A DNA stretch of 64,000 bases from UHGV virus genome UHGV-1374526; one strand, 5' to 3'. Shown here piece by piece: positions 2,447-59,109 of this stretch; within the stretch, counting starts at the first letter, position 1, and the number at the start of each line of letters is the position of its first letter. The stretch comes from a virus. The notes below the pieces were generated by a model, which was not told the origin of the DNA, did no database searches, and saw only the letters and a list, made by a program, of their open reading frames with translations. Both the position numbers and the translations under genes were made by a program.

Positions 2447-3798
2447 GTGCGCTTACTCCATTCCCGCCTCAAGAAGATTGCATCCACGATATGGTGGATG
2501 CAATTACCCGGCACGGCTATGTGATAAATAAATCCTGCACGGGTACGGGGAAGACATTGGTTACTATCGAAACCGCGAAGGCTATGGGCAAGAGACTTCT
2601 CGTCGTCTGCCCTGCCATCGTAGTGACCCAATGGAAGCGAGCGATTGAACAGCAAGGAGCGGACGCGGTGGATGTCCTCTCATGGGAGAAGGTGCGCAGG
2701 GGGAGCACCCCCTATTACAAACGCCCCACAAAGATTCCCAAGTCCCGGATAGTCTTCGGGGCTTGGACCCTTCCCGACGATTCCTTGCTGGTCCTTGATG
2801 AAAGCCATAAGGCCAAAACCTATGGTAGCCAAAGCAACATCATGGCATTAACTGCGGCCCATCAAGGACTTCCGACGATTATGCTCTCTGCCACTCCTTT
2901 TATGTCTCCCCTCGATATGAGTGTCCCCGCAACATATGCCAAGTGGATTCAAGACCCCCGGCGAGGGTTCTGGCTCTGGGCACGTATGCACGGATGCACC
3001 GACAGCTTCTGGGGAGGTATCGAGTTTAAGCTCAACCCACGTAACCACGCCATGATGGAGAACCTGAAACAAAAGCTCTTCACTGCTGGGGTTATGACAG
3101 AGATTGACAAGGATAGACTTGACACATTCTTCCCGGAGAATAGAATCGAATATCTGTCCGTGGACGTAGACATGAAAGGTATGAAAGAGATTAAACAATT
3201 ACAGAAAGCACTTGACAAGCTGGACAAATCATGGGACCAGTCCATCGAACGGGCTAACGAGAAGGGAATCGAACTTCCTGCTATCGTTGAACTCCTTCGG
3301 CTTCGCCAGCAATCTGAATTGGCTAAGCTCCCCACGATGGCAGAGAAGGCAGTTGAACTTCTGGACAGTGGATATAGCGTCGCCATCTTCGTGTCTTTCC
3401 TCGACAGTCTCTCCACACTCTCGGAACTCATTAACAATAAATCGGGGAGAACAGTTCCCTACTCCGAGATTAGTGGAGCGGTGACTGGGAAGAACCGACA
3501 GGAAGAGGTGGACAAGTTCCAACGGAATGAAGTTCCTCTCGCTCTCGTGCAGATTAGTGCAGGAGGAACTGGGGTGTCGCTTCACGATACCGAGGGAGGC
3601 CACCCCCGCGCCGCACTCATCTCGCCCGATTTTTCCCTTTCGTCACTCCTGCAAGCTCAAGGACGTATCGCCCGCCTCGGTGCAAAGTCACACACCTTGC
3701 AGTACATTGTGACCGCCTCCGGTACGGTGGAGGAACGAATCATACAATCACTCAACACAAAAGAAATTTGCTTTAACGCATTAACATCAAATGGCTAA
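2443..3798 (+). CDS. SF2 helicase (SNF2/DEAD-like)
   Basis: Walker A CTGTGKT. DEAH-like box VLDESH. Motif V ISAGGTGVSLH. Motif VI QAQGRIARLG. ATGA overlap with the polymerase stop. Confidence 0.8.
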   Translation: MSALTPFPPQEDCIHDMVDAITRHGYVINKSCTGTGKTLVTIETAKAMGKRLLVVCPAIVVTQWKRAIEQQGADAVDVLSWEKVRRGSTPYYKRPTKIPKSRIVFGAWTLPDDSLLVLDESHKAKTYGSQSNIMALTAAHQGLPTIMLSATPFMSPLDMSVPATYAKWIQDPRRGFWLWARMHGCTDSFWGGIEFKLNPRNHAMMENLKQKLFTAGVMTEIDKDRLDTFFPENRIEYLSVDVDMKGMKEIKQLQKALDKLDKSWDQSIERANEKGIELPAIVELLRLRQQSELAKLPTMAEKAVELLDSGYSVAIFVSFLDSLSTLSELINNKSGRTVPYSEISGAVTGKNRQEEVDKFQRNEVPLALVQISAGGTGVSLHDTEGGHPRAALISPDFSLSSLLQAQGRIARLGAKSHTLQYIVTASGTVEERIIQSLNTKEICFNALTSNG

Positions 3799-5005
3799 TA
3801 ACGAAACCAACACTCATAGTAAGTACAGTCCGAGTAAGATGGCATTGCTCGCTACCTGTCCCGGATATGTCCCACGCCCCCTGACTAAAGAGGAAGAAGA
3901 GGATGACTTCTCCCCGGCGGCCATTGGGACCCGTGTTCACGCGGCCCTCGAAACCAAGAACCCAGAATCCCTTCTTACCAAGCATGAGCACATCCTCTAC
4001 ACTGCGGCATCCAACATGGTGGATAGGCTCATGTCCATCTTCGCAACCGAGGTACAAACGGACAAGGTAGAAGTACTCCCGGAACACAAGTTTGAAGGAA
4101 TCGTCTTCAACCCAGACGACGAAGCACAAACCGGAACGGCTGACGTTCTTGTCCGGCATGGTGATACTTCCATGATTATCGACTACAAAATGGGGATGGT
4201 CCCTGTCTCTGACCCTGCCGAGAATACCCAGTTCATCTACTATGGTTTGCTGGAAATGGCAGAACGCCCTGAATGTAAGCGCATTATCCTCGCGGTGGTA
4301 CAACCCAGCCAGACCGAAAGCATGAAGATTGCGGCGTTCTACCGCGACGGTAAGGGGCCGAAGTTCACCACCGACATGTCCGCAGTCCCTATGGACGAGG
4401 CTACCGCAAGGGGAAACATGTCCGCAGTCATTGCCCGCCATTGCCGTGACGCGGAGAACCCCTACGCTTACTCATCCTCTCCGCACGTCTGCCCCTACTG
4501 TTCCCGTCTCGCCCGGTGTAAGAAGGTGACTAGCATGGCCCGTAACTTCTCACTTAAAGTATTGAAGGACAAGGACCTAGCCGAGGGAATGATTGACAAT
4601 GTCGGTACGGCGATGGACAACCCGGAAACCCTTGGCTCCCTTCTTTCCTTTGCGAACATTATCGCGGAGGCCAACAAGGTGCATAAGGACTATGCCAAGA
4701 CCCTCTTCGCTTGCGGCGTTGATGTTCCCGGATGGAAGTATGCACGGCGAGGTAATACCGTAAAGGTGGACAACGATGCCTTCCGTGCCTACGTCGAGCA
4801 GTACATTTCCCCAGAGGAAATTCTGGACAGCATCTCCCGCCTCCCTGTGTCGAAGCTTCTTGACATGGTGGTAGATAAAAACAAAGTTGAAGGAGCCACC
4901 CGTGCCGAGATGAAGGAGGCCAAGGAATCCTTACTCGAAGAGCTTCAAGAACTTGGAGTAGTGAAAGAAGTGACGAGCGCGATGGCTTTGCTCAAAATCA
5001 AATAA
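3791..5005 (+). CDS. PD-(D/E)xK nuclease with Cas4/RecB-like Cys cluster
   Basis: An N-terminal Cys (LATCPGY) plus C-terminal C-x2-C-x5-C (CPYCSRLARC), typical of Cas4-like Fe-S nucleases. Core D..D/ExK-like segment DVLVRHGDTSMIIDYKMG. The start overlaps the helicase stop by 8 nt. Confidence 0.6.
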   Translation: MANNETNTHSKYSPSKMALLATCPGYVPRPLTKEEEEDDFSPAAIGTRVHAALETKNPESLLTKHEHILYTAASNMVDRLMSIFATEVQTDKVEVLPEHKFEGIVFNPDDEAQTGTADVLVRHGDTSMIIDYKMGMVPVSDPAENTQFIYYGLLEMAERPECKRIILAVVQPSQTESMKIAAFYRDGKGPKFTTDMSAVPMDEATARGNMSAVIARHCRDAENPYAYSSSPHVCPYCSRLARCKKVTSMARNFSLKVLKDKDLAEGMIDNVGTAMDNPETLGSLLSFANIIAEANKVHKDYAKTLFACGVDVPGWKYARRGNTVKVDNDAFRAYVEQYISPEEILDSISRLPVSKLLDMVVDKNKVEGATRAEMKEAKESLLEELQELGVVKEVTSAMALLKIK

Positions 5006-20502: not shown

Positions 20503-20536
20503 CCCCGGAGGCTAACCCCCTCCGGGGATTTTTATT
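20503..20536 (+). terminator. intrinsic terminator
   Basis: Stem ccccggagg / cctccgggg followed by atttttatt. Confidence 0.65.
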
Positions 20537-20581
20537 AAAATAATTTCTTGACAAATAATAAAATTATTATATGGTGGTGGC

Positions 20582-21169
20582 ATGTCCAAGACATCAAACA
20601 CCAAACAGATAACCAAGATTGTTATTGACGAGGCCAATGGCTTGACACACGTTTATATGTCAGACCTTAGCCCGAAGATAGTTAAAGCCAATACCTCGGC
20701 CCCAACGAACATTCCTACCAAGAGCGAATTCTCTTTTCGCGATGAATCCGTAGAATCGCAAGCAGTAGTTGAGAAGGCCTTTGACGAAGTATTCCCGGAG
20801 GAAGATGGGCATCCTCAACTGTTCTGCCCAATCTGCGGTGGTCTATTGAGAGAAGCACGTCGCGGCAACTACGTGTTCGTAGAGTGTATGAGTTGCGAAT
20901 TAGCGGTGCTGGGAGATGATAGTGACGATTATGAAGAGGCGAAGGAAAAGGCATGGCTTACCGCCCGCCAGTTTATTGAAGAACTCCCTCCGCTTCTGCG
21001 TCTCCAACCCGGCGCCGAAATCCAGTACTACGACGGCATGTTCCATAGGCATACCGGAATCGTTGCAGGAAGAACCCGCGTCTCCATGCGCATCCTGTTG
21101 GAGGATGGGCGAAGCATTGACCCCAGCAGGATAGTTGAATGGCCGTGGGGAATGGAGCAAGCCGAGTAA
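20582..21169 (+). CDS. zinc-ribbon protein with C-terminal WPW domain
   Basis: CPICGG...CMSC zinc ribbon. C-terminus ...RIVEWPWGMEQAE. Paralogous to the next gene. Confidence 0.5.
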   Translation: MSKTSNTKQITKIVIDEANGLTHVYMSDLSPKIVKANTSAPTNIPTKSEFSFRDESVESQAVVEKAFDEVFPEEDGHPQLFCPICGGLLREARRGNYVFVECMSCELAVLGDDSDDYEEAKEKAWLTARQFIEELPPLLRLQPGAEIQYYDGMFHRHTGIVAGRTRVSMRILLEDGRSIDPSRIVEWPWGMEQAE

Positions 21170-21171
21170 CC

Positions 21172-21546
21172 ATGAAGGAGAGCAAAATGAAAACGCCTAA
21201 ATGCCCGGTGTGCGGAAATGAGATGCAGTTGCAATCTGATGAAGTATGTTCAGGGTATTACACACCATTATATTATTACGAGTGCATAGCATGTCCTCTT
21301 GCCACAACGCCAGCAGATACCGCAAAAGACGCCGAGAATCAGATAAAAGAGCTTATTTCCAAGTTCCCGCCTATCATGAGGGTCTGGCCCGAAGATACAG
21401 TAGTATGGAAAAATACTCCTGTCACGATTCTTGATAAGGACGTTCCGTGCGGAGAACTTCTGGTGATAAACTCGCAAGGACGCAAATTCCTCATACCTCA
21501 TCATGCTATTGAGAAATGGCCGTGGGAACTTGAAAGGGTAAACTAA
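21172..21546 (+). CDS. zinc-ribbon protein with C-terminal WPW domain (paralog)
   Basis: CPVCGN...CIAC. C-terminus ...AIEKWPWELERVN. The start is moved to the first ATG after the upstream stop. Confidence 0.45.
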   Translation: MKESKMKTPKCPVCGNEMQLQSDEVCSGYYTPLYYYECIACPLATTPADTAKDAENQIKELISKFPPIMRVWPEDTVVWKNTPVTILDKDVPCGELLVINSQGRKFLIPHHAIEKWPWELERVN

Positions 21547-21548
21547 CC

Positions 21549-22010
21549 ATGAATACATTGCATCTATCAACCACACAATACTTCGCGCTTGCGGTTCTTT
21601 TCGCGCTTGCGGGTGTAGCTCTCCGCGGCTTAGGGGGTACTGCCCTCACCGAGATGGCCAAGAGGCTGAAAGCTCACTTGAAGCTCATTGGCATTGAGAC
21701 CAATAGCTACCGGACGAGAGGAAGCGAGTATACCCTATATGAGCGCAAGGAAATGGAGAACATATACAACCATATCTTCAATACCTCGGTTCAGTGGGTT
21801 ATCTTTGGGCTAATCGGACTGACCGTAAGTATCATTGCCGAGTGCCTCTACACTCTTCCCGCACCTCCGCTTTATGTCCTCTCTCTTATCTCCGCATGGA
21901 TTGCCGCATGGTATCTCTTTATTGTTTTATCTAACTACATAACCACGGGGGTTTTCATGTGGATGACCCGCTATCGACTTTACCGCGAATACCCAAACAT
22001 CAAATTCTAA
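21549..22010 (+). CDS. integral membrane protein (3-4 TM)
   Basis: Hydrophobic segments YFALAVLFALAGVAL, VQWVIFGLIGLTVSIIAECLY and LYVLSLISAWIAAWYLFIVL. Confidence 0.5.
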   Translation: MNTLHLSTTQYFALAVLFALAGVALRGLGGTALTEMAKRLKAHLKLIGIETNSYRTRGSEYTLYERKEMENIYNHIFNTSVQWVIFGLIGLTVSIIAECLYTLPAPPLYVLSLISAWIAAWYLFIVLSNYITTGVFMWMTRYRLYREYPNIKF

Positions 22011-22011
22011 T

Positions 22012-22422
22012 ATGGAAAAGAATCAAATTAAACTCGGAATGATTGTCCGCGTCGACGGCGGCCCTTGCGGTCGCGTCGTGGAAATCGACAACGAACGTTC
22101 TTCCTACCCGTACAAGGTACGCTATTCGGGAGGATTAGCGGAGTGGGCCTCTGCTAACCAGATGGAAGAAATTCTAGATGCGCCAGAAGAATCTGTCCGC
22201 GCTGGTTGCACTAACGCCGCCAAACCCCGGCGACCGTTCAAGAGAGGGGATAGGGTACAATACGTTCCTCGCGGCTGGGTAAGCTATGATGAAGAGCCTA
22301 CGCCCTATCAGGAGTACGCGGTTTACGATGATGAAGACAGCGACGGCTGGGTAGCTATCGATGGAGTAACCGTCAACTACTTCAACACCGTTATGTTCTT
22401 TGACCTCAAACTAATCGATTAA
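22012..22422 (+). CDS. protein with two SH3/KOW-like small beta-barrel repeats
   Basis: GMIVRVDGGPCGRVVEID and GDRVQYVPRGW repeats. Related short motifs recur in the genes at 30997 and 31409. Confidence 0.45.
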   Translation: MEKNQIKLGMIVRVDGGPCGRVVEIDNERSSYPYKVRYSGGLAEWASANQMEEILDAPEESVRAGCTNAAKPRRPFKRGDRVQYVPRGWVSYDEEPTPYQEYAVYDDEDSDGWVAIDGVTVNYFNTVMFFDLKLID

Positions 22423-22427
22423 CCTCC

Positions 22428-22553
22428 ATGATTGCCTACCTCTTATTCATTATCTTCATCGTATGTCCCATGAGCATCGCCGCTCTCGGAATGGTCCTCG
22501 CGTATTACGCTGGGCTAAGGGCAGGTATGAAGCAGAAGGAGGAAGGAGTATGA
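22428..22553 (+). CDS. 41-aa single-TM micro-protein (not in ORF track)
   Basis: MIAYLLFIIFIVCPMSIAALGMVLAYYAGLRAGMKQKEEGV. Its stop overlaps the next start (ATGA). Confidence 0.4.
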   Translation: MIAYLLFIIFIVCPMSIAALGMVLAYYAGLRAGMKQKEEGV

Positions 22554-22681
22554 CACTCTTCCTCAATTTAATCCTTGCATTCTGTATCATAACGAGTACA
22601 TCTATCCTCGTAAGAATTCTATTCTTATTCCTACTAAATCCCAGCAAATACATTCACCATGACCACAACGATATTTGTTAG
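22550..22681 (+). CDS. 43-aa single-TM micro-protein
   Basis: MTLFLNLILAFCIITSTSILVRILFLFLLNPSKYIHHDHNDIC. The ORF-track 22463 version adds an Arg-rich extension that overlaps the upstream micro-ORF. Confidence 0.4.
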   Translation: MTLFLNLILAFCIITSTSILVRILFLFLLNPSKYIHHDHNDIC

Positions 22682-22784
22682 TATTACTGACATCCTTGCA
22701 TGGATAGGAATTACTCTGTGCATCCTCGCCCTATTCACCCTGTGGGTAATCGAAACCATTAAGAAGCATATCAAAAGAAAATGA
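22659..22784 (+). CDS. 41-aa single-TM micro-protein (not in ORF track)
   Basis: MTTTIFVSITDILAWIGITLCILALFTLWVIETIKKHIKRK. Its stop overlaps the ATG of the Cys-rich gene (ATGA). Confidence 0.35.
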   Translation: MTTTIFVSITDILAWIGITLCILALFTLWVIETIKKHIKRK

Positions 22785-23806
22785 ACGACGACGAACCAAA
22801 TTGTTGGACCTGCGCATACAGCAACTTCCCCGAAACCGCGGAACCCTGTGCATCCTGTGACATGTACTTTAGCCACTTTGAATCCAGTGAACCCACGGAA
22901 TCCACGGACACCGCGGCAAGCGAGGATGCACGGAGGTGCTCCCTCTGCAAATTCCGTGATATCCCGATAGTGCAATCCCCCTGCCAGAGGTGTGCTATCA
23001 CTCCCGGACTTCCCTGCTTCACCTCCGATACCAACAAATTGGTAGAGATGGAGAAGTTGAAGCGGGAAGAAGCAAAGCGGAGGGAAGCCAAGATGGCTGG
23101 TCCTACCTGTCTGGCATGTAAACATAAGGGGGTATCTATCCTAGAGGAACCCTGCATCTCCTGCAACGGCTATCAGAATTATACCCCAGATGAATCTGCG
23201 CCATGTGCCGAAGGTACGGACGAGAACGATGATGTCATCGAACCGTGCAATACTTGCACTCACCGGGATAACCTCCGTTGCAATCCTCCATGCTCTCATT
23301 GCCGACAGGAGCGGGGAATTGAGTACCCGGAATATGAAGAGGATAAAGGGGATGAAGAGGATGTCCCCTCCCCCTGCTCCACATGCAAGTACGGGGACTT
23401 GCCCGGAACCGTGGGACCCTGTGCTTCCTGTTTCGACGAGGGGCTGGACCATCCCCTGAACTACGAGGAAGCCACGGAATCCGGGGACGAGGAATCCAAG
23501 GACGAGGATTCCGGGGTCACAGAAATTGTGCCGAAGCATATTGTTGATATGTTTGTCGAAAGAGTGGGGCAAGAGGTGCGACGGCATTTTGAAGCCCACA
23601 ATGCTCATCCACGTCCTTGCCCCTACTGCGGAGAAATCCCGGAGGTCGTGGGGGAAACCATCTATCCCGGAGAGGAACATTGCTATGTCGTCTGCAACGG
23701 GGCCAAGCTTCTTCCTCATAGCATTTCCATTCATGGCCTCACTCGCGAAGAAGCGGTAGCCCGCTGGAATAGCTTCGTATTAACTATGAAGTCCCAAGAA
23801 AAATGA
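22781..23806 (+). CDS. Cys-rich protein with five tandem C-x2-C...P-C-x-S/R-C zinc-finger-like modules
   Basis: CWTC..PCASC; CSLC..PCQRC; CLAC..PCISC; CNTC..PCSHC; CSTC..PCASC; plus C-terminal CPYC...C..C. Acidic P/T/E/S linkers. Confidence 0.55.
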   Translation: MNDDEPNCWTCAYSNFPETAEPCASCDMYFSHFESSEPTESTDTAASEDARRCSLCKFRDIPIVQSPCQRCAITPGLPCFTSDTNKLVEMEKLKREEAKRREAKMAGPTCLACKHKGVSILEEPCISCNGYQNYTPDESAPCAEGTDENDDVIEPCNTCTHRDNLRCNPPCSHCRQERGIEYPEYEEDKGDEEDVPSPCSTCKYGDLPGTVGPCASCFDEGLDHPLNYEEATESGDEESKDEDSGVTEIVPKHIVDMFVERVGQEVRRHFEAHNAHPRPCPYCGEIPEVVGETIYPGEEHCYVVCNGAKLLPHSISIHGLTREEAVARWNSFVLTMKSQEK

Positions 23807-23903
23807 ACGCTCACTGGATAACCATTAGCGGGGGAGGATTCGTCCTCCCCATTAACTCCATACTAATCGCGGAGGGAGACCTCGCCGCATAACATTTCAT
23901 CTC

Positions 23904-24134
23904 ATGAACCTTCCATACATTGGACAAATCAAAGGGCTTCGCCAATATCTTATTGACGAGCGCATTCTCTCTCCTATCGAAGTTGGTCTAGCCTCCGACA
24001 CAGAGCTACTCGACACAATCATTAAACGAGGATATTCCTTCGTCGTACCCTACAATGGTAGCTATACGACTGGGGATGAAATCCTTCTAATCCCTAATGA
24101 CGCATTGAACCATGCAGTCAAATTCTCACGCTAA
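23904..24134 (+). CDS. hypothetical small protein
   Basis: 76-aa ORF downstream of a GC hairpin (23830-23850). Confidence 0.4.
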   Translation: MNLPYIGQIKGLRQYLIDERILSPIEVGLASDTELLDTIIKRGYSFVVPYNGSYTTGDEILLIPNDALNHAVKFSR

Positions 24135-24138
24135 ACGT

Positions 24139-24225
24139 ATGTACACACTAATCGGATTCCTTCTCGGTATTCTCTTTTACTACATCATCGAGAACAATAA
24201 CGACAACGACTTTACCCCTGCATGA
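24139..24225 (+). CDS. 28-aa TM micro-protein (not in ORF track)
   Basis: MYTLIGFLLGILFYYIIENNNDNDFTPA. Its stop overlaps the next ATG (ATGA). Confidence 0.3.
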   Translation: MYTLIGFLLGILFYYIIENNNDNDFTPA

Positions 24226-24698
24226 AGAAGAACAGTAGAGGACTAATCGTCCATCCCGGATTGAAACATTCACGGAGGCCACGGCATAGTACTCCCCCGG
24301 TAAAGAACGTGCCACGGGGCTACATTGCCACTGGGGAGATTGCCGATAAAATCGGGAGAAGCTCCGTATGGGTAATTCACGCCCTGAACCGATTGAAGGT
24401 CAAACACGTTCGTTGTGGGCATACCATGTACTGGGAAGGGGAAGGAGCCAATGAATATATTCAGATGCAGGTCAAAGGTCTATATGACAGCATCCCGGAA
24501 GGGTACGTTGATGTAGCTACCGCATTGGAATCTACGGGCTTGAAGTCTCCGGCGTATCTGACCACCCTATTCAAGCGGGGCAAAGTTCAACGTGTACGGT
24601 ATCGTGATGATAGCGACCCTCGCGGTCGTAGGACACGGTTTGCGTATAATTTGCTTGACCTCCTTTCTCATTTGGGTTTAGATAGCTCTGACGTATGA
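24222..24698 (+). CDS. HTH DNA-binding protein (AlpA/Xis-like, tentative)
   Basis: Segment YIATGEIADKIGRSSVWVIHALNRLKVKHVRCGHTMYW resembles excisionase/AlpA-type HTH. Confidence 0.35.
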   Translation: MKKNSRGLIVHPGLKHSRRPRHSTPPVKNVPRGYIATGEIADKIGRSSVWVIHALNRLKVKHVRCGHTMYWEGEGANEYIQMQVKGLYDSIPEGYVDVATALESTGLKSPAYLTTLFKRGKVQRVRYRDDSDPRGRRTRFAYNLLDLLSHLGLDSSDV

Positions 24699-25048
24699 GA
24701 ACGACCTACTCTACAACCAGAACCATACAGAAGGGCCAGAGCAATCAGCGAGCCTTGCTCGGTCTCCTTCTGAATATTGACCTCCTTGACTTCTCCCTCA
24801 CCGTTGATAACATACGTGTCCTTCTGTACATGCACGCCAATGGATTTGAGAGTGAGCATAGTAACCCGGAAATTAGCAGGGGTACTCGCATCCAGATATC
24901 ATCTCTCTACTATGTCCTGCGCAAGCTGGAAGAAAAAGGGTATATTGAATACGAGGGAGTGAGGGGGTCGAGGAAACAAACTAAAAGTAAACTAACTCCG
25001 AAAGGTATCACTTTCTGTCGTGACATCTTCCGGCCACAAACAATCTAA
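24695..25048 (+). CDS. winged-helix transcriptional regulator (PadR/MarR-like)
   Basis: LYYVLRKLEEKGYIEYEGVRGSRKQTKSKLTPKGITF is a classic wHTH recognition helix plus wing. Confidence 0.5.
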   Translation: MRTTYSTTRTIQKGQSNQRALLGLLLNIDLLDFSLTVDNIRVLLYMHANGFESEHSNPEISRGTRIQISSLYYVLRKLEEKGYIEYEGVRGSRKQTKSKLTPKGITFCRDIFRPQTI

Positions 25049-25056
25049 TCAACGAC

Positions 25057-25491
25057 ATGGAAAAGAACAATCTCGATGAACAGGCAGAAGTCGCGGCCAA
25101 GCTCTATAGCATGGCTGAACTTCCAACCCCGTGGGACCAGCTCACCGCGGTAAAGAAGAAGCCCTACATGAACATGGCGGGCAAACTAATCAAGGGAGAG
25201 GCTGACATCTTTGCCCAGCTGACGGCGAAGTACTGTGTCCAGCTTGGTGTACCCGGCAAGTACAAGACCATCATCTCCGGGATTATTAGTGCCGCCCTTG
25301 GAGCTTTAGCTATGTTTGGAGCGTTGGGGCAGAGTAGTTGCACCTACGCGGATGTGAGTAAGGACCGCGCAGTTATCTGCAATGGAGAATCCTGTGTAAT
25401 CGTTAGCCCCGGAAGGTTGACCTTTACGCAGGAACAGCCTAAGACGGATGCAGGTCCGGTGGTAATCCCCTCCAAAGAATACTGCAAATAA
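25057..25491 (+). CDS. membrane-anchored small protein
   Basis: TM IISGIISAALGALAMFGALG followed by Cys-containing soluble tail. Confidence 0.4.
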   Translation: MEKNNLDEQAEVAAKLYSMAELPTPWDQLTAVKKKPYMNMAGKLIKGEADIFAQLTAKYCVQLGVPGKYKTIISGIISAALGALAMFGALGQSSCTYADVSKDRAVICNGESCVIVSPGRLTFTQEQPKTDAGPVVIPSKEYCK

Positions 25492-25492
25492 T

Positions 25493-26524
25493 ATGGCAGA
25501 AGAGTATCAAGAGATTCCACAAGCTCCTGACCTCTTTAATCATCCCGTACCCTCGGTTCCCGTGGGTACGGAGATGTTTAATGAGGCCCCGCCATTTGAT
25601 TCAATGCCGGACCCGATTGCCCCTGTCTATGGGGATAGTGATGTAGGGACGTTCCATACCCCGGTATATAATGATGACCCCCTCATGCGCAACCGGGAAG
25701 AGAGCATGTTCGCCATTGTGTATGACCCAAAGGATTCCGGGACTAACGCAAAGGTCATGTACACCTGCGGTGTTGTCATTGATGATAATGAGGTGCATGA
25801 AATTGGAGGTGCGCCGGGGACGTTGAAGGCAGTGGATAGTGGAGAGAAAGCACCATTAGATGATGACATCGTCTGGTATGTCAATGTTAAATCCGACCGC
25901 AAGTCCTCCACCGTGTCTAGTAAGAAAGACACCAGCGCGGACTTCTCCGTCCCCATTGCGAGGACGAGCAAGGGCAGGAACGGATATATCCAGCAACTTC
26001 ACCGTGGTGCTATCTTCATTGGAGGCGGCGGTGGTGGCGGCAAGTTCCCATACAAGGTCACGACGACTAAGGAGCAGGACGCAAACAAGAACTGGCATAC
26101 CTACGCAGTTATCGAGCCGGGCGGTTTCCGTGATACCGAACGGAAGAAGGTGGAGATTGACGGGTTCAAAGACGGGGCGGCTAAGAAGGAAATCGTAACC
26201 GACGGTGAACTTCCCGTACTCCTTGAATGGGAATACACTTGGCCCGCCAATACCGTGACGAACGCCAAGCTGGTTGTTGATGATAAGCCGTGGGATGGTA
26301 AGGAGGTAATCACTCCGATTGAGAGTGCCGAGGGAACGGGTAAGAGCAAATGCGCGATTGCCATCCTGACGGTAACGCGAAACCCGCAGGACAATAGTCT
26401 TGACGCAACCGTGAAATCCCAGCTGGTCAATACTGGACTGGCCGCCGTCTGGTACAGCGGATATGTTGATGGCGTTAGCGGACGTGTTGGGCAATATGCA
26501 GAAGTAAGTACCGTAGCACCATGA
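25493..26524 (+). CDS. hypothetical protein (possible virion/tail component)
   Basis: 343 aa with poly-Gly IFIGGGGGGGKFPYK. Confidence 0.4.
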   Translation: MAEEYQEIPQAPDLFNHPVPSVPVGTEMFNEAPPFDSMPDPIAPVYGDSDVGTFHTPVYNDDPLMRNREESMFAIVYDPKDSGTNAKVMYTCGVVIDDNEVHEIGGAPGTLKAVDSGEKAPLDDDIVWYVNVKSDRKSSTVSSKKDTSADFSVPIARTSKGRNGYIQQLHRGAIFIGGGGGGGKFPYKVTTTKEQDANKNWHTYAVIEPGGFRDTERKKVEIDGFKDGAAKKEIVTDGELPVLLEWEYTWPANTVTNAKLVVDDKPWDGKEVITPIESAEGTGKSKCAIAILTVTRNPQDNSLDATVKSQLVNTGLAAVWYSGYVDGVSGRVGQYAEVSTVAP

Positions 26525-29563: not shown

Positions 29564-29818
29564 ATGAAGAAGACCAACGATATTAGTATTGTAGATAATA
29601 AGAGAGTAGGAATCCTCAAGGTGAAATATGATGGAGATACCTTTGCCATCTTTAACTATTGTCGGGAGGGAGACGAGAAGGAACAGTGTTATCCCACGCG
29701 CGAAAGGGCTATAGAAATGGCGAAGATGGTTGCTCGCCATCTCATCCACGCGAATCCCGTTATGACAGAAAGGGGCATTGACCTTTACCCGACAGACTGT
29801 ACAATCCAAGACGAATAA
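29564..29818 (+). CDS. tandem-array paralog 1 (~80-aa family)
   Basis: Shares the FxV...A.FNYC...G....T...A...A.K.AR core with the next five genes. Confidence 0.5.
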   Translation: MKKTNDISIVDNKRVGILKVKYDGDTFAIFNYCREGDEKEQCYPTRERAIEMAKMVARHLIHANPVMTERGIDLYPTDCTIQDE

Positions 29819-29821
29819 ACC

Positions 29822-30061
29822 ATGAACGACAAAGTAGCTATTTTAGAAGACAAAGGATTTGGATTCTTCCGAGTAACTCACTGTGGAAGTGTCATTGCAG
29901 ATTTTCTTTACTGCACAGGCTCTGGTGAACAAGGATATATGACACGAGATTCCGCAAAGAAACTGGCAACGAAGATTGCCCGCTACGTAGTTAGCAGAGG
30001 GACAGTTTGTACCATCGAGGGAGTATCACTTAACCAAATCATTTTCAACATCGATGACTGA
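29822..30061 (+). CDS. tandem-array paralog 2
   Basis: GFFRVTHCGSVIADFLYCTG...TRDSAKKLATKIARYV. 8-nt ATGACTGA overlap with paralog 3. Confidence 0.55.
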   Translation: MNDKVAILEDKGFGFFRVTHCGSVIADFLYCTGSGEQGYMTRDSAKKLATKIARYVVSRGTVCTIEGVSLNQIIFNIDD

Positions 30062-30290
30062 CACTCTAAATATTACCACCATAGATGACCCCGATATCGG
30101 GTTTTTCTGGGTCCTGCTTGAAAACTGTTGCGTTGCCACCTTTTACTATTGCGTGAAAGATGATAGTGGCTTCTTCACCAAGGAGCAAGCTAAGAAACTA
30201 GCCAACAAGCTCGCCCGCAAAATTGAGAAGAGCATGATTATCGAAACCGAAAAGGGAATCAAATTGGAAAGGAACAACATCAATGAATAA
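30054..30290 (+). CDS. tandem-array paralog 3
   Basis: MTDTLNITTIDDP...FFTKEQAKKLANKLARKIEKS. N-terminus near-identical to paralog 5. Confidence 0.55.
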   Translation: MTDTLNITTIDDPDIGFFWVLLENCCVATFYYCVKDDSGFFTKEQAKKLANKLARKIEKSMIIETEKGIKLERNNINE

Positions 30291-30519
30291 CGATTCAGAT
30301 ACCCGTGTTTATGACATCCCTACTAGCGGAATGTTCCGCGTCAGGCACAGAGGAAGTTGCGTCGCCGTTTTCAACTATTGCGTGGCAGATGAAAGCGGCT
30401 TCTTCACCAAGAAGCAAGCTAAGAAACTAGCCATCAAGTTCGCCCGCAAAATTGAGAAGAGCACGGTCATAGAAACAAAGATGGGAATCAAACTTAAAAG
30501 GAACAATACTAATGACTGA
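30283..30519 (+). CDS. tandem-array paralog 4
   Basis: FFTKKQAKKLAIKFARKIEKSTVIETKMGIKLKRNN, nearly identical to the paralog 3 C-terminus. Confidence 0.55.
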   Translation: MNNDSDTRVYDIPTSGMFRVRHRGSCVAVFNYCVADESGFFTKKQAKKLAIKFARKIEKSTVIETKMGIKLKRNNTND

Positions 30520-30760
30520 CACTCTAAATATTACCACCGTAGATGACCCCATTGCCGGATTTTTCCGGGTCATGCTTGAAAACTGTTGCGTTGCCGCCTT
30601 TTACTATTGCACGGAAGGCGAGGAAGGACATTTCACCAAGAAGCAAGCCAAGAAGCTGACCGAGAAGCTAGTCCGCAAAATTGAAAATAGTACGACCATC
30701 AAAACCAAAAAAGGATTCAAACTACTTAAACCGAAAGGGAACGACAATGACCAACGATAA
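30512..30760 (+). CDS. tandem-array paralog 5
   Basis: MTDTLNITTVDDP...HFTKKQAKKLTEKLVRKIENS. Confidence 0.55.
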   Translation: MTDTLNITTVDDPIAGFFRVMLENCCVAAFYYCTEGEEGHFTKKQAKKLTEKLVRKIENSTTIKTKKGFKLLKPKGNDNDQR

Positions 30761-31428: not shown

Positions 31429-31864
31429 GAACAGATTTAAGTGCGGCGACGTTGTTCTTCGGATAGATACGGGAAGATGTGGCATGTGTGGGGATAGCAT
31501 CCCAACAGGGTCTATCCTCCGGGTAATGTCCGACGAGGATGTTGCTGGTGTCGTTCGTGTCCAATATCCCCAAGCGAATGATGAAGACGAAGAGATACAG
31601 GATGTTATGTGGTACGAAATCGACCACTTACCCGCGAAAGCCAAGGTAGAAGAATTCTCGGATGCCGTGAGGGTGTCCATGAATGGGAACGCTATTGCCA
31701 CCATTCTCACGGACATTGCCACCCCATTGGGCACTCTTCATTTCGAAAGCTGGGCCAGAGAAATTGCCCAGTCGATGGCGAACATTATTAACCTTCAAAT
31801 CTCATTGGGGAAGCTAACCTCGGATGGAATCAAAGTAGAAAAAACTAATGACAAGGAAAGATAA
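31409..31864 (+). CDS. hypothetical protein with SH3/KOW-like motif
   Basis: FKCGDVVLRIDTGRCGMCGDSIPTGSILRV. Confidence 0.45.
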   Translation: MELGKYKNRFKCGDVVLRIDTGRCGMCGDSIPTGSILRVMSDEDVAGVVRVQYPQANDEDEEIQDVMWYEIDHLPAKAKVEEFSDAVRVSMNGNAIATILTDIATPLGTLHFESWAREIAQSMANIINLQISLGKLTSDGIKVEKTNDKER

Positions 31865-32615
31865 GATAAAGGAAATACAGAAGTGGGCGGGAACTACGCC
31901 CGATGGCATCCTTGGTGATAAGACCATTGATGCTATATGGAAGAAGATACAACCCACGGAATCCACGGTTCCCGATGAACAACCCAACGATTCCCCGGAA
32001 TCCGCGGGTCCCGCGGCATACGTGTCTCCGGCAGAGCTTGTCCGCAAGGGCATGGCTAAGAAGATTCTCAACATGGAGGACTACAAGATTACAGGTCCCG
32101 ATTCTCTGCGCGTAACTCGCCTCCCCTCCGGTGACGGCGGTGGCAAGTGGGAGATTGCAGGTATCTGTGATGGGATTGAACCCAAGGAATTCAATCTAAT
32201 CAAATCCATGATGGACCGGGGCGACAGGGATGCGGCATGGGAGGAATGCCTCCGCTATGTTCTCGCCAATACGGAACCGTTGGTTGCCAAGGGAGTTGCA
32301 GGATGCTACGCCATTGAGTTCATGCTTCGTGACATGACCTTCAACATGGGTGTGGCGGGAACGACTAAGGTCGTCCAGCGCATGCTCGACATTGATATTG
32401 ATGGCAAGTGGGGGAAAAATACTCAAGCCAAATGGACAGACGCCATTCAATCATGGGATGAAAAGGAAGTTCTCGATTCGCTGGACCGCGCTTGTCGTGC
32501 CCGCTATTGCTCCATTGTAAGAGCCAATCCGGTGAAGGCGAAGTTCCTTACGGGCTGGTCCAACCGATGCAATGCACGGCTTGCCTACGCTCTTACTCTG
32601 TTGTCAAGGAAATAA
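31848..32615 (+). CDS. endolysin-like protein (GH108-like core with peptidoglycan-binding repeats, tentative)
   Basis: N-terminal PG-binding-like GTTPDGILGDKTIDAIWKKI. LPSGDGGGKWEIAGICDG resembles the GH108 DPGGxTxxGIT block. C-terminal DIDGKWGKNTQAKW resembles PG_binding_3. Confidence 0.4.
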   Translation: MTRKDKIKEIQKWAGTTPDGILGDKTIDAIWKKIQPTESTVPDEQPNDSPESAGPAAYVSPAELVRKGMAKKILNMEDYKITGPDSLRVTRLPSGDGGGKWEIAGICDGIEPKEFNLIKSMMDRGDRDAAWEECLRYVLANTEPLVAKGVAGCYAIEFMLRDMTFNMGVAGTTKVVQRMLDIDIDGKWGKNTQAKWTDAIQSWDEKEVLDSLDRACRARYCSIVRANPVKAKFLTGWSNRCNARLAYALTLLSRK

Positions 32616-32681: not shown

Positions 32682-33035
32682 ATGTTTAATTTCATCGCAC
32701 AGCTTAATGCTACTGACGGCAACGTGTGGGCATTGTTTCTCACTCGTATCGTCGATGAAATGTCCCCCGCGTATCTCGTATTCGTGGGGGTTATTTACGT
32801 GGCAGTAAAGCTGGCATATAAGTACCTCTCAAAAAAGATAGAGTTTAGTCTTGATAAGGAGAAGTCATTTCTCATACTATTGCAAGAAGCTCTAAGAGTT
32901 ATATCCGAGTTGGATGATTCTCTAGACCAACTACATGGAAAAATAGACAATCTACGAAGCGACCATGAAGAGATAATCGACCGCGCCTTCTGCGCTATCT
33001 CGCAACAAGATACACACCCCCTCCGACAGAAATGA
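32682..33035 (+). CDS. small TM protein, holin candidate
   Basis: TM AYLVFVGVIYVAVKLAY. Position next to the endolysin-like gene. Confidence 0.35.
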   Translation: MFNFIAQLNATDGNVWALFLTRIVDEMSPAYLVFVGVIYVAVKLAYKYLSKKIEFSLDKEKSFLILLQEALRVISELDDSLDQLHGKIDNLRSDHEEIIDRAFCAISQQDTHPLRQK

Positions 33036-38394: not shown

Positions 38395-41300
38395 ATGGCT
38401 ATTGACTTTAGTACCGCCAATATGTCCGACTTCACTCCGAAGTCGGGAAGCAGTATTGCACGTGAACAGCGAGCCGCAGAAAGGCACGCCGCGTGGCAAG
38501 AGACGCAAGCGCAGAAACAGCAGGACCGAGAACAGAAAGCACTGGACCGCGAGCAAAGGTTAGCGGAAAAGAAACAGACCCGTGCCGAGAAGGGAGCGAC
38601 GGCGACCGCAGACTATGACACCTTCCTCTTTAAGTCTGTTGATGACTTTGCGGAGAAACAGAAAAAGGATGCGGAACACGCAAATAATGTAGAATGGCAA
38701 AATAAATCCCGCGCCCATACGGAACAAGAATGGAAAACCGCCGAGGAAAATAAAGCCCTCGACATCTTGAACAAAGGAAACCGTGGGTACAGCTTTGAGG
38801 GAATCGACTACATGAAAGACTATGTAGACCGCGGGGAAGATGCGCTGGTCGATTTGAAGGCCGCTTCCCGCGGTGATAGCGAGGCCATTAAGAAGCTTGC
38901 CAACAATACGGGACTTACCGTTGTGTCTTCTTCCGAGCTTACGCCTACGCACCCCACCTTCTTATCCCGCTCTGGCTTCGGAAGTGGAGAGGACGGGAAC
39001 CCCGTCGTAACGGAAAAGTTCCTCGCCATTGCCGCGGACAGAAACCGTAACGCAAAGGCGGTTGCCAAAGGCATTGCCAACACAATGGAAAAGGCCCGGA
39101 AGGATTACCTCAACTCGAATCTAGATGTTGGAACGGGTAAACCTACGGCGCAAGCCATCGAGACCGCACCTATTGCTTACACCGCAGAAGAAATAGAAAG
39201 CGTCATCAATACGATTAGGCGCGAAGACATTGGCAACTATCGTGCCGCTAAGGCTCTTTACGACAAACACCGCTCTTCTTCGACGGAAGGCGTGCAGAAG
39301 AAAACCCCCAGCCAAACGAGCGTGGGGGAGCTTGGCGTTGGCGAATTCTCTGATTCAGCACCTTCATTTACTGGGAATGTTTTTGCTGAACTCGCCAACC
39401 TTTCCAAGTCTCCCAGCAAAATGTTCCAGCTTGTCCGCGACTACGGGGATTACCTTTCCCGGAGTACGGAAGATATTGAATCCCCGGAATCTGCTACAGC
39501 GGATGCGAAACAACTCCATACAGACCAAGCAAAACTCATTTCAAAAAAAGAAAAACCTGTTGAGGATAGGATTCGTGAACAGATAGAAACAGCCGACAAA
39601 ATCGTAAGACGCCTCGAAGAGGACTACACTGGCCTTCCCTATCTCGAACTTCGCGACGCGCTTCTCAATCCAGAGGCCGCGGCCTCTGCCCTTCTGTCTT
39701 TAGTCCCCGGTGCTGACATGGACGCAATACGTGCACGGGCAAAGGTCATTACCGAGGAAGTTCGCCGCCAGAAGGACCGCCCTCTGACCGTCGAAAACCC
39801 CGAACAGATTGGCATGAGTGAGGCTATACTGGAAGCCGTGGCCACAAGGTTTCCGGGGGTTCCAAAATCTGCCCTGCGCCAAGCGGGAGTAACCAAACTG
39901 ATTCAGGACTATACCGCCAAAGCCACGCCGAAAGGCACTCTCATGGATGCAGTCAAAGGCGCACTGGCTAACTACCGAAGCACGGCGGGACAAATTGCGG
40001 ACGTACTTACCTTCCAACCGGATAATAGTGTGGGTAAGTACGCCGACCCAATGAGCTTGATGGAATGGAGGAAGGGAACGAGGCGTGGCTCATGGTGGTA
40101 TGGCATGCCGGGCGGCCCGTCCTTTGAAGTCGGACCGGAGAGGTTGAAGGAATACATGGCCCAGTACCATATTGAAAGTACTCGCGATGCCCTCAACTCC
40201 CTCTCCCATGCCGCACGTATGGGTGACTTGGGCGTTGGCCGTGGCAGTCTCTTTGCGTACAATCCGCACACCAAGGAAGTTGATACGAACGCCACGCTCG
40301 AACTGAATCCCAATGCTCTCTACAATGATAAGCTGATGGACCAGAGCATTGAGGCTCTCCGTGCTAGTGGCGCGGACGAGAAGCTTATCAATCGCACCAT
40401 TGAGAAGTTCCAGAACCTCCGCAAGAAATCCGCACAGGAACTTGTGAAGGACAACATGGCATTGGACGAGACGCTGGGGACGCTTCGCGATACGTGGCTT
40501 GGCTCCGGCTTGCAGTTCAACCCTGTCTTGACTGAATCCATGAAGCATCTGGACAAGTACCTTTCCTTCAAGAATTTCTACAACGAACAGAAGGAAGCGG
40601 GCAAGAGCGACGAGGACATCCTCTCCGCATGGCAGGAGAAAGGGCAAGCCACCTTCGATTCTGTTCTCCGTGGGTTACAGATAGGTACACACAAGGCAAT
40701 CGACCTTGGGACAAGTACCGCCTATGGTGCTCTTCTCTTTGCACAGAATGCAGTTGGCAGTCGTGCGGCGATGGAACATACCCGCACCCTCTGGGACCAG
40801 CTGAACAAAAAACAGGAAGCAGAAGCCGAGTTGGTTCGAGGCAATATCCTTGCGGACTATACTGCGGAAATCGCTAACCTCGGCTACCAAATGGTAGCAA
40901 CCGCGGGGGCTGGTAAAGTTGGTGGCCTCGCTGGCCGTGCACTGACACGTACCGCGCTCAATAAATTCATGAAGGCAACGGCTAACGTCGTAGCGAAGCG
41001 GGCCGAAGCTCTTGTCCCTGCCGCCCGTCCGGGATTGGCGGGACGTTTGAGTGGAACTATTCAGCGCAACCTCGACAACCTTGCGGCGTTGAACCTCGAA
41101 CGGGCAGGAGCCGGAGCCGGGGTAAATCTTAGCATCATCTCGCAGGTTGCACCGAATGCTTACTCCGACATCTTCTATACCATTTATGATAGGGAGATGG
41201 AAGGGAAGGAACCGACTGCCGAGAACACGAACAGGGCACAGAGCATTGCCAACATGCGTGCTCTCTTTGGTGCGGCTCTCGTATCTACTGGTAGTACTCT

Positions 41301-44300
41301 CATCAACAACCGCGCAGGTATGGATTCCTTCATGCGTAAGATTGTTGGGGCTAAAAACCTTCGCGGTCAATCTCCATTCCAAACTCTTGAACGGAAGATG
41401 GCCGGATGGAGAAGCAAGCCATTTAAGGAGATGAACACGAAGGAAAAGACGTTTGCCGTTGCTTCCTATCTGTACAGCCAGAGCAAGGCCGTAGTGGAAG
41501 GAGCCACCGAAGAACTGGCAGACGAATTCCAAGAGTGGGCGTTTACCGAACTGGTGAAGAACGGAGAAATCTCCGAATCCTCTATTGCCACTACTGACCA
41601 AGTGATTAGCACAGGCATGAAGATTGCTTTCCTCGGAGGTATCGGCGGCTACGTTGGTAGCCACTTAGCTGGTGAAGGGAACATACGTTTCCAAACCGAA
41701 GCCGCTCCCACTCTCGATGTAAAGGATGCTACTTCCATGCTACCGGATATTACGAAAGATGCGAGCAACATCATCGAGGAAACGGGCAAAGCCATTACCA
41801 AAAACAATGTGCCGGAAAGCTTGGTAGAAACCGGAAAGAAGGTTATCGAGATTGCCGGGGAGAAGGGAGATGCCGCGGAAGTTGCCCGCGAATGGGTGGA
41901 CAAATCCATTGCCCATGAAAGTCTGGCAGTCTCCGATGAAACCCGCAAGGCGTGGGTGGAAGGAGCAACCCGTATGGGCATCAGCAACTTCACCCAGTTC
42001 CGCAACCTAGTGGAACGGGCCTCCGAAATATATACCTATGAGGGCAGTGCCGCGGCAAGCTCATTCATGGCAGAAGCCATTAACGACCTGCCCAATACCC
42101 TGTCATTCCCAAATAAGGAAAACCTCGACACCATGCGCACCATGCTTTCGGAGGCCCTTGATGCTATGGGAGACCGGGTTCAGGTTATCGAAGTAGACGA
42201 CGACCTGTCCATCATTACTACAGGGGACGAGGACCTTGATGCCGCCATTAACGTTATTAACGGATTGACGGAAGCCGCGGCTACCACGGAACCCAAGGAA
42301 TCCCCGGCTACCGCGGAACCCACGGAATCCCCGGTAGCTATTGCCCGGAAGGAGAGGGACAATGCTATTGCCCCCATCACTGCTATGGTAGAGACGGGAG
42401 TAGTTACCCCAGAAGCTACCGCTTCCGTGGATAACATGGATGCGGCAATCACCTCGTTCGACCCCAACACCGGGGCATGGCTCTCATCCGGTTCACCTCT
42501 GGACCGCGGCGCGAAGCTCGTCTCCCTGAACGAGATGACCGGGATTAACGCCCCCATGATTACCAGCAACACGGGAGAAACCGTTGTCATCGCTCCGCAC
42601 GCAAGCATGTACAACACAGGTGAGGGAGGGACACCCAGCACCAAGTGGGGGGACAAGGTCTCCGCTCTCAATCTCCCGACGGATGGGACTGGCGCAAATG
42701 CCTACGGCACGCTTCGCGGCCTTCAAGTTAATGCCTCCCCCGCACAGGCCGCGGCCATTGATGGAGTGCTCCGCGCACTGCATGCCGCTGGTTTGGACGT
42801 CGCTATCCGTGCAACCAATGCCCCGGCGAACATCTCTTCCCCTGCCAGTATCACCTACATGAACGGCACGGACGGGAAGCTTGTCGGCGGTGTCATTGAC
42901 CTGTACGTGAACCGGGATAACCCGATTGAAAGCGTAACGGGAACGGTACTACACGAAGTCATCCACCTCATTGACCGTCATCTTCGTACCACCAACACGG
43001 ACTATTCCCAGCGGATGGATAGGATTAGAAGCGCGATTGCAGAGAACTACAACAACATTGTCGATAGTCTCTCCGCTATGTATGACGCTAGCGTGGACAT
43101 CAATGAGATGAACGCCATCGCCGCGCTCGCTTCCGACCTCAACTACGGTCTCCGCGGTGCGGACGAATTTGCCAGTGTCGCGTTCTCCAATCCTGTCATG
43201 AACTTCATGGTAGCGGAAGCTAGCGGAGACAATATCACCATCACGGATTTGGCTCGCTATGCCGAAGCGGCGGGAGGCCGGAAGCCCGTGCACGTGCGCC
43301 TCGTCGAATGGCTTAAAGATTTGATTAGGGACATCAAAGATACTGCGGACGATATGGACGGAACCACCGCCGCAGAACGCGTGGCTGAATGGGATTCCTA
43401 TGTGGCCCGCGTCGCGGACATGACCCCCGGCAAGTGGTTCGATATGCCTCGCACTCCGTCATGGAAAGTAGATGATACGGATTATACTATGGGCAACGGG
43501 GTAGATTATTTTAACCCGATGGCCTATGAGACCGACATGACCCGGAGATTGTCCTTCGGCCTTGGCGCAGAAATCATTGGCACGAAGGCCGGGAACTGGG
43601 TAACTAGTATTAAGAACGTATGGCAAGGCGTGTCTAAGGGCTTGGACAAAGCAGGCATCAATGTTAAGTCCGAGGAACAGAAGCTGGTTGTGCTGGAACA
43701 AATGGCCAATGTTAATGCGGCGTATGAACGCAGTATTAAACGCATTGACAAAATTGGTGATATGCTTCAACGCCGTGCGGATAATCTGGGCTGGGATGCC
43801 GCTACGCGAAAGAAATGGAGCAAGTCCATTCTTGACATGTCGGGGAATATGGACAACGATATTGACCCTGAAACTGTTGCACGCATTAACGCAGAGGCTC
43901 AAGCAGAAGTTCGTCAGCATGAACAGACCCGCGACTTCCGTATCGCGTTGGCTAAGAAGACTGTCACCGATGCCGTCAATAGGCACGCGGAAGCGGTGCG
44001 TCTGGCTAACTCCCTTGCGCTTAATAGTGAAGGGCGATTGGAAATCAACGACATGATGCGCCGGATTAAAGACATGAGCGGCAAGGGATATGGAGCCATG
44101 CTGGACAAGCAGGTAGCTCTCCCCATGCTCTCCCAGCAGATTCACAAATCTCTCTCCGACCTTGGCTCTCGTATCTCCGCGACGGGGGATGCCAATCTGG
44201 ATATCACCTACTTTGGCCTTGCCCGCGACACGCAAAACTATCTCGCGGATATGATTAACGAAGTGGATAGTCCCTTCTCTATGGATGAACTTCTGGACAG

Positions 44301-58391: not shown

Positions 58392-58464
58392 TGCTTTATT
58401 CTTTCTATTAGTTTATTGTTGTTTGGTTTATTGTTGCGGGGTTTGTCCCCCGCTGGATGATTTC

Positions 58465-58492
58465 AGTTTAGCAGATTTTCTTATCTTGTCAA
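58465..58492 (-). promoter_or_regulatory. leftward promoter cassette copy (TTGACAAGATAAGAAAATCTGCTAAACTG)
   Basis: -35 TTGACA and -10 TAAACT on the minus strand, followed by leader hairpin gcgggg/ccccgc at 58436-58453. Confidence 0.55.
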
Positions 58493-58530
58493 ATTATTTT
58501 TTAAGTTGTATGACAAAAAGCGTATCTTAT

Positions 58531-58959: not shown

Positions 58960-59011
58960 AGTATTATTCTTTCTATTGTTTTGTTGATATAGTTGCCGCC
59001 CTTCCGGTGGC

Positions 59012-59039
59012 TGATGAATGTACTTTAGCAGATTTTCTT
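59012..59039 (-). promoter_or_regulatory. leftward promoter cassette copy
   Basis: TTGACAAGATAAGAAAATCTGCTAAAGT on the minus strand. Confidence 0.55.
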
Positions 59040-59109
59040 ATCTTGTCAAATACTTTTTGTAGAGCGGCGTAGTTATTCACGGTCTGTAATTTATGATTGG
59101 TTTATTGTT

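Follow-up and report, generated by a model that had tools for sequence, protein, structure and literature searches.

Can a gap of some 358 bases that looks non-coding hide several genes, and what would such genes do for a phage? This question is raised by the viral genome UHGV-1374526. The window, that is, the whole stretch of DNA analysed here, is a 64,000-nucleotide (nt) fragment of the genome of a tailed phage of the human gut (genome size roughly 70 kb), and the region in question lies at positions 22428–22784. A preliminary description of the letters had read this region as three consecutive coupled open reading frames (ORFs) for small hydrophobic peptides, joined to each other and to the next gene by an ATGA overlap, a 23-nt overlap and a second ATGA; the coordinates and overlaps that we obtained match this layout exactly. 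We call the three micro-genes A, B and C, and the features of the region are as follows (aa, amino acids):

22428–22553, plus strand: micro-gene A, an open frame of 41 aa starting MIAYLLF
22550–22681, plus strand: micro-gene B, an open frame of 43 aa starting MTLFLNL
22659–22784, plus strand: micro-gene C, an open frame of 41 aa starting MTTTIFV
22423–22658, plus strand: A+B accessory cassette, 236 nt between the stop of a 136-aa gene and the ATG of C
22535–22548, plus strand: tandem GAAGGAG ×2 at the A/B junction, encoding ..KEEG.. of the A tail

The start of A is 5 nt past the stop of the 136-aa gene (22012–22422), and A ends and B begins within the ATGA at 22550–22553. B and C overlap by 23 nt in different frames, and the stop of C in turn has an ATGA in common with the start of a gene for a cysteine-rich (Cys-rich) protein at 22781–23806. 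Judged by comparison with related phages, all three micro-genes genuinely code for protein and are under purifying selection.

The comparison set consisted of ~50 related gut-phage contigs: 32 syntenic IMG/VR loci obtained by protein-anchored scans, contigs from Logan, ENA and JGI found by exact look-up of homologues, and 9 more from a metagenome scan. The IMG/VR copies of A are identical, and its divergent alleles come from Logan contigs. Among the six nucleotide alleles of A, the 27 polymorphic sites are distributed 4/4/19 over the three codon positions, and the pairwise ratios of non-synonymous to synonymous substitution rates (dN/dS) are between 0.06 and 0.15. In a six-frame test, only the A frame was free of stops as well as constrained (ratio 0.10). 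For B, comparison with the most divergent allele (locus L095, 67% aa identity) gave proportions of synonymous (pS) and non-synonymous (pN) differences of 0.77 and 0.18, and the resulting pN/pS of 0.24, in which pS is saturated, is the lowest of the six frames; homologues of B in other contigs are 43–46 aa long and are called from the same Met. C has a dN/dS of 0.35 over 20 nucleotide alleles, with polymorphic sites of 13/8/19 by codon position, which is comparable with the values for two neighbouring genes, the 153-aa membrane protein mem153 (0.30) and the 136-aa protein up136 (0.33). Relatives carry an in-frame 6-nt indel near the N-terminus of C, and C is kept in the most distant relative, L060. 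Thus, by dN/dS and pN/pS, purifying selection in relatives falls on the A, B and C frames, as the preliminary description had expected of real genes. That description also stated that the genes are missing from the ORF list of the window; in public assemblies, C, B and occasionally A are already called as unnamed or ‘hypothetical’ proteins; C, for example, has been deposited as ‘hypothetical protein’ DAG09763.1.

It is scarcely credible, given these relatives, that the stretch is non-coding or that its product is instead a 72-aa long form (22463–22681) or an antisense ORF of 65 aa (22653–22456). The long form, which the preliminary description had itself named as a possible true product, is open in the window and in locus L065, but it is broken in at least nine alleles (interrupted in L064 and L066–L071, out of frame in L095/96) in which A and B are undamaged, and where its N-terminal part runs over A, the frame has ratios near 1.9. 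Because of these interrupted alleles and the unconstrained frame over A, the long form was rejected as the product. Opposite B the antisense ORF is free of stops in every allele (pN/pS of 0.44), but its length (41–81 aa) and C-terminus vary with each junction indel, it takes non-synonymous changes wherever it lies opposite A, and no promoter for it was found in the scan. That it is open only opposite B is what the mirror-image codon alignment is expected to produce, and with its unstable length and the changes opposite A it was rejected as the main product. The third-position bias and the lowest pN/pS, moreover, are on the A and B frames. A programmed −1 frameshift from A into B was also considered, the B frame being at −1 with a Shine-Dalgarno (SD)-like run upstream, and was rejected: there is no slippery heptamer, and the fusions of A and B described below are genomic 7-nt duplications.

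The three genes are not equivalent. As read from their distribution among relatives, C is near-universal in the clade, and A+B is an optional two-gene cassette that moves by recombination. C occurs in 31 of the 32 IMG/VR relatives at 58–98% aa identity, its place being invariably between the genes for the 136-aa and the Cys-rich proteins, and its homologues form 20 protein clusters, all from this same phage clade. In every relative that has C, the Cys-rich gene lies directly 3′ of it, and the ATGA is kept except in the distant L060, where there is a gap of a few nt. A and B are found in 8/32 IMG/VR relatives and are always gained or lost together. In the 32-locus alignment, the stop of the 136-aa gene in cassette-free genomes is followed by 2 nt and then by the ATG of C; the cassette is hence a net insertion of 234 nt (236 versus 2 nt), with CCATGA at both junctions. 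The cassette allele of the window shows 0/236 mismatches across 12 haplotypes, whereas the 232-nt flanks of these haplotypes differ from the window at 1–12 positions on the left and 1–27 on the right. Other cassette alleles differ from that of the window at 19–24 positions, and those of L095/96 at 48–51 positions, which exceeds their flank differences. An identical cassette amid differing flanks is the pattern expected from recombinational spread of cassette alleles. The GC content of the cassette is 43.6%, versus 50.8% for the window. Separately, a close 39-aa variant of C (P0026) sits on a 437-kb contig.

The junction of A and B contains the tandem GAAGGAG, which resembles an SD site for B, and natural variants of this repeat change the relation of the two genes. 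With a third copy, A and B are joined in frame into the 86-aa protein P0001 (L072 and L073, from two samples and with different flanks), and a loss of 1 nt in L095/96 gives an A of 46 aa that overlaps B by 17 nt. From the three-copy and −1 variants it follows that every junction variant keeps both reading frames. A and B probably act as a pair. One could go further and regard A+B as a split two-helix module in which slippage of (GAAGGAG)n toggles, heritably and reversibly, between the split and the fused state, similar to phase variation, an idea that we consider a long shot. If it held, two copies would yield two coupled single-pass peptides, three copies an 86-aa hairpin and the −1 form an extended A overlapping B, and the split and fused forms would have different activities, e.g. 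an active and an inhibited pore, or exclusion on and off.

The preliminary description predicted a transmembrane (TM) segment for each peptide, and Kyte–Doolittle analysis bears this out, with one strongly hydrophobic helix in each of A, B and C (19-residue maxima of 2.66, 2.35 and 2.45, respectively). Because a mean of ≥2.0 is attained by only 9 of the 273 ATG-initiated ORFs of 28–60 aa that the window has in its six frames, with A and C as the top two, the hydrophobicity of the three peptides exceeds chance. A has an N-terminal TM helix at approximately residues 2–28, followed by the charged tail RAGMKQKEEGV, and in the allele alignment G21, A25, G29 and G33 form an invariant small-residue zipper. 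Zippers of glycine and other small residues are typical of oligomerising, channel-forming helices. B has a TM helix at approximately residues 2–29 with invariant T17, S18 and R22 in the alignment; its segments MTLFLNL and FLFLLNPSKYI are also invariant, and its C-terminal tail is variable. C has a short N-terminus, a TM helix at approximately residues 12–31 and a strongly basic tail, TIKKHIKRK. No mutual likeness of A, B and C is apparent by eye, without alignment, and there is thus no sign of tandem duplication. The AlphaFold2 (AF2) model of the natural A–B fusion is a helical hairpin of H2–35 and H41–72, with a predicted local distance difference test score (pLDDT) of 73. Each peptide is very likely to be a single helix inserted in the host cytoplasmic membrane, where A and C are predicted to be N-out/C-in with their basic tails in the cytoplasm, and B to be antiparallel to A because the natural fusion requires such an orientation.

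How would three such genes be expressed? The surrounding block contains the following features:

20503–20527, plus strand: terminator-like hairpin of 9 bp, 8 of them GC, with a T-run
20548–20575, plus strand: sigma-70-like promoter TTGACA-16-TATGGT, from a consensus scan, preceding a 195-aa gene
21549–22010, plus strand: mem153, a 153-aa membrane protein with 3 predicted TM helices (hydropathy and AF2), the first membrane gene of the block
22012–22422, plus strand: up136, a 136-aa soluble protein, directly 5′ of A, or of C where the cassette is missing
22781–23806, plus strand: 341-aa Cys-rich protein, ATGA-coupled to C, built of CxxC...CxxC zinc-ribbon repeats and with a C-terminus that is weakly Lar-like
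23803–23892, plus strand: conserved micro-ORF of 29 aa sharing an ATGA with the stop of the Cys-rich gene, too weakly hydrophobic for a TM helix
24139–24225, plus strand: 28-aa micro-ORF with a hydrophobic run of ~16 residues and then an acidic tail

A promoter at ~20.5 kb, together with a scan of 20600–26000 in which no terminator-like sites were found, places the micro-genes in one operon with their neighbours, and the segment 20503–20575 is the probable start of this operon as judged from its consensus elements. SD sequences are rare in this phage (only ~12/74 ORFs have even a 4-mer match) and the leaders are A-rich. In such an SD-poor phage the stop-start overlaps likely initiate the micro-genes, and the gene layout suggests that each of them is most likely translated by termination–reinitiation.

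Four membrane genes lie within 1.3 kb around the micro-genes. The most upstream, mem153, had been described as a 4-TM protein, which should be corrected to three TM helices by both hydropathy and the AF2 model; the latter shows 3 long helices with a pLDDT of 69 and a predicted template modelling score (pTM) of 0.35, and is too weak for a fold search. The 28-aa ORF at 24139–24225 had been proposed as a fourth TM peptide. It is indeed intact in 37 loci, which contain 14 nucleotide variants; but its hydrophobic run is only ~16 residues, no 19-aa window in it has a mean ≥1.6, and with codon-position counts of 2/5/6 the coding support is weaker. The ORF at 23803–23892 is intact in 44 loci with 12 nucleotide variants and is called as a gene in several assemblies; its codon-position counts are 6/6/8, and as neither of these two short ORFs has a clear bias by codon position, both are putative genes.

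Three members of the operon, the 195-aa (20582–21169), 135-aa (21139–21546) and Cys-rich (22781–23806) proteins, carry a weak Lar-like zinc-ribbon signal, in all cases below the Pfam cutoff. The matches of the Cys-rich protein are phrog_599 (E = 5.6e-4) and PF14354 (E = 0.019, below the curated cutoff). Its modules are of the form CxxC-(10–12 aa)-CxxC with acidic linkers between them, and its called length ranges from 235 to 359 aa across relatives, which suggests gain and loss of modules.

As far as the contigs can be compared, the operon block is dispensable and prone to deletion. The 135-aa gene is full-length in approximately one quarter of the relatives, and most of the others keep an 11% remnant. 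IS605-family TnpB (OrfB) genes are inserted in the operon at L064:743–1957 and L095:3200–3874 (equivalent to ~21.1–21.5 kb of the window), and in L095 a called ORF spans the TnpB helix-turn-helix region into the C-terminus of the 136-aa gene. For the TnpB of L064, no close copy was found in 185,579 species genomes, the best match being 37–48% identical. The 136-aa gene is deleted in L107, and L063 is without C. In L106, a deletion has made a chimera of 51 aa (3001–3156) from the first 33 codons of mem153 and the last 18 codons of C; this creates a new single-TM micro-protein, in which the basic tail of C is preserved and which remains ATGA-coupled to the Cys-rich gene. Moreover, mem153 and up136 can be lost while C is retained.

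Homology gave no function for these peptides. The relatives are phages of 68–70 kb from human-gut metagenomes, and when 5 kb around the locus was compared by megablast with 50,697 phage records, nothing matched. The phage PolA is at most 27% identical to those of cultured phages, with no annotated relative to lend function. Genes in the first part of the window include:

392–2446: PolA
2443–3798: helicase
3791–5005: PD-(D/E)XK nuclease

A, B, C and the A–B fusion had no match in Pfam, PHROGs, NCBIfam or PADLOC, and Rfam had none over the cluster. Sequence searches of the PDB gave nothing significant, the best hit for A being a 33-aa CydS subunit (5doq_C, E = 0.5). Word-indexed searches of 5.8 billion proteins recovered only members of this phage clade, as did HMMER with the A–B fusion against 1.84 billion representative proteins and scans of IMG/VR and metagenomes with profiles of A and B. 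The three peptides therefore have to be considered without homologues of known function, and are orphan members of a very large class, the small phage TM proteins of unknown function.

What could such peptides do? The overall best explanation is that they are coding, non-equivalent, single-helix membrane peptides which modulate the host inner membrane; we hold this tentatively, at somewhat short of an even chance. In bacteria, small proteins with a single TM helix target membrane complexes or serve as membrane toxins (PMC12648545). Like these bacterial small membrane proteins, a peptide helix of the phage would pack on a larger membrane protein, or the peptides would pack on one another, and a function of the host inner membrane would be remodelled or blocked in infection, whether for host takeover, superinfection exclusion or counter-defence. 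The zipper G21-A25-G29-G33 of A, the Arg/Thr/Ser cluster of B and the natural fusion point to specific helix–helix contacts and not to a bulk membrane effect. That helix packing is the way in which A, B and C modulate host inner-membrane function is, by this analogy, possible, although we would not call it probable. The size of the peptides is that of the small regulators, each having ≤50 residues and a single TM helix; described families of small membrane regulators in NCBIfam and Pfam do not include them. Genes for exclusion or immunity are non-essential and variably present, which A+B is, and C is mostly conserved; homology to Imm, Sp, SieA, gp15 or Ltp-type proteins was sought in PHROGs and Pfam without a match for A, B or C.

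Several points weigh against this explanation. Translation, membrane insertion and phenotype of A, B and C are predictions only. The location in a variable region and the dispensability may suit many functions equally well. No homologue with known function came from any library searched (Pfam, PHROGs, NCBIfam, PADLOC, Rfam and PDB), and the proposed mechanism hence rests on analogy. Over B, the codon-aligned antisense frame likewise stays open and shows mild constraint (ratio 0.44). Each deletion variant is known from a single metagenomic contig, and the genomes concerned could be defective. As to the host, the leaders are SD-poor and A-rich, but no Bacteroides-type promoter consensus and no close bacterial TnpB copy were found.

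Other functions have to be weighed with these points in mind, and the later part of the window contains:

31848–32615: endolysin-like gene (phrog_315, E = 2.8e-17), the only such gene in the window
32682–33035: 117-aa protein directly 3′ of the endolysin-like gene, with one TM helix at the N-terminus and a C-terminal half that is helical and charged
38395–48090: single ORF of 3231 aa in the structural region

For small phage membrane peptides, the preliminary description had named holin or antiholin modulation, superinfection exclusion and inhibition of the host membrane machinery as roles. One alternative to the favoured explanation is lysis control, in which one or more of A, B and C would be a holin, pinholin or antiholin that sets the timing of lysis, with A+B as a split two-component holin and the 86-aa fusion as its class II-like form. 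Size, the single TM helix and the charged C-terminal tails (checked for A and C) agree with this, the fusion has the class II layout of two TM helices and a hydrophilic C-terminus, and the small-residue zipper of A is of the kind that channel-forming helices typically have. However, the endolysin-like gene is 9 kb downstream with a 1-TM neighbour of its own, which from its position and layout seems a better holin or i-spanin candidate than the micro-genes, and the cluster is outside this lysis cassette, in an operon that follows the replication genes and not at the end of a late operon. A and B are missing from 24/32 relatives, C is lost in L063 and cut down in the L106 chimera, no holin family in PHROGs, Pfam or NCBIfam matched, and there is no dual-start motif. 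A distant endolysin, optional A and B and a losable C disfavour a holin or antiholin role, which we regard as unlikely, and less likely than modulation of the membrane. A second possibility is that the partner is a phage protein: C would anchor the Cys-rich protein at the membrane or recruit it there, and A, B and C would join mem153 in a phage membrane complex. The adjacency of C and the Cys-rich gene in every relative with C, the retention of the C basic tail and the ATGA coupling in the L106 chimera, and the four membrane genes within 1.3 kb all speak for such a complex, and on a reading of the sequences the membrane-embedded R22 of B might find an acidic partner in, for example, D11 or E32 of C or the Glu of TM2 of mem153. 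On the other side, mem153 and up136 can be lost with C kept, and C was nowhere seen fused to the Cys-rich protein; the one apparent case, P0036, a 364-aa member of the C cluster, turned out to be an unrelated, mis-clustered transporter-like protein and was rejected. This too we consider improbable.

The peptides could also resemble the membrane-depolarising type I toxins Hok, TisB and Fst, with shutdown of host energy or an abortive-type arrest as the outcome. Having <60 aa, one helix and a charged tail, they do look like type I toxins (PMC12648545), but they are stop-start coupled in a polycistronic operon and are not self-contained silenced units, no toxin family matched, Rfam gave no small RNA, and crude consensus scans of the minus strand at 22.4–22.8 kb, a weak negative, turned up nothing resembling a promoter or terminator. 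We think this reading rather improbable. Modulation of the host inner membrane by helix packing thus remains the explanation that we favour, tentatively as stated.

Comparison with known systems shows where the likeness ends. AcrZ, MgrB, MgtS/MgtR, SgrT, KdpF and CydX/CydS have, like A, B and C, at most 50 residues, one TM helix, short tails and often a basic cytoplasmic end, and act by helix packing on a larger membrane protein. They have no detectable homology to the peptides described here, which, unlike these bacterial regulators, are phage-encoded and form a coupled triplet, with A+B as a mobile presence/absence cassette. Among the holins and antiholins, lambda S, S21 68, T7 gp17.5 and T4 rI are small with charged C-termini, and the A–B fusion has two TM helices as class II holins do; in contrast to holins, A, B and C are outside the lysis cassette, lack a dual start and match no family, and A+B is not conserved. 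T4 Imm and Sp, HK97 gp15 and P22 SieA are, like A and B, non-structural, dispensable, variable inner-membrane proteins encoded outside the morphogenesis and lysis modules, although such exclusion proteins are larger (~80–160 aa or more) and unrelated in sequence to A, B and C. The type I toxins Hok, TisB, Fst, DinQ and ZorO, like A, B and C, combine a length below 60 aa with a single hydrophobic helix and a charged tail (PMC12648545); in contrast, neither an antisense RNA partner nor a transcription unit of their own was found for A, B and C, and homology to the toxins is lacking. Small-gene catalogues (Sberro et al. 2019, bioRxiv 10.1101/494179; GMSC, PMC11364881) contain many comparable cases from the gut and from phages, i.e. 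short, conserved and often TM ORFs recognised by comparative genomics. Beyond these catalogues, the anatomy of A, B and C is resolved at the level of genes, including the coupling, the cassette polymorphism, the fusion by a 7-nt repeat and the history of alleles.

Small phage membrane proteins are numerous, almost entirely uncharacterised and usually dropped by annotation, and A, B and C are a well-supported case. Fremin et al. 2022 is reportedly a further catalogue of uncharacterised small-gene families from phages and microbiomes. C is common to nearly all members of a clade that is widespread in the human gut, and A+B is a tiny mobile cassette which also exists naturally fused. What most sets the locus apart is the polymorphism of the cassette together with the fusion caused by the repeat; at present the locus reveals no new mechanism. 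The natural forms with A+B present, absent or fused provide a tractable test set for effects of the peptides on the host membrane, and the locus shows how much selected coding capacity can be hidden in ‘intergenic’ gaps of SD-poor phages that depend on stop-start coupling.

Some further observations concern the rest of the window. No tRNA genes were found in it, and genes for an NAD-ligase, a thymidylate synthase and a nucleotide kinase are on its minus strand. A tandem array of five paralogous ~80-aa genes with a motif of the type FYYC...FFTK.QAKKLA.K.ARKIE lies at 29564–30760, and L074–L076 have 4 to 6 called copies. On the minus strand at 58409–62207, the motif AA(C/T)AATAGAAAG(A/C)A precedes the ATG of seven minus-strand genes by ~8–12 nt; an eighth copy, at 59203, has no ATG after it, and the core occurs once on the plus strand. 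This motif may be a shared translation-initiation or early-promoter element of the SD-poor phage.

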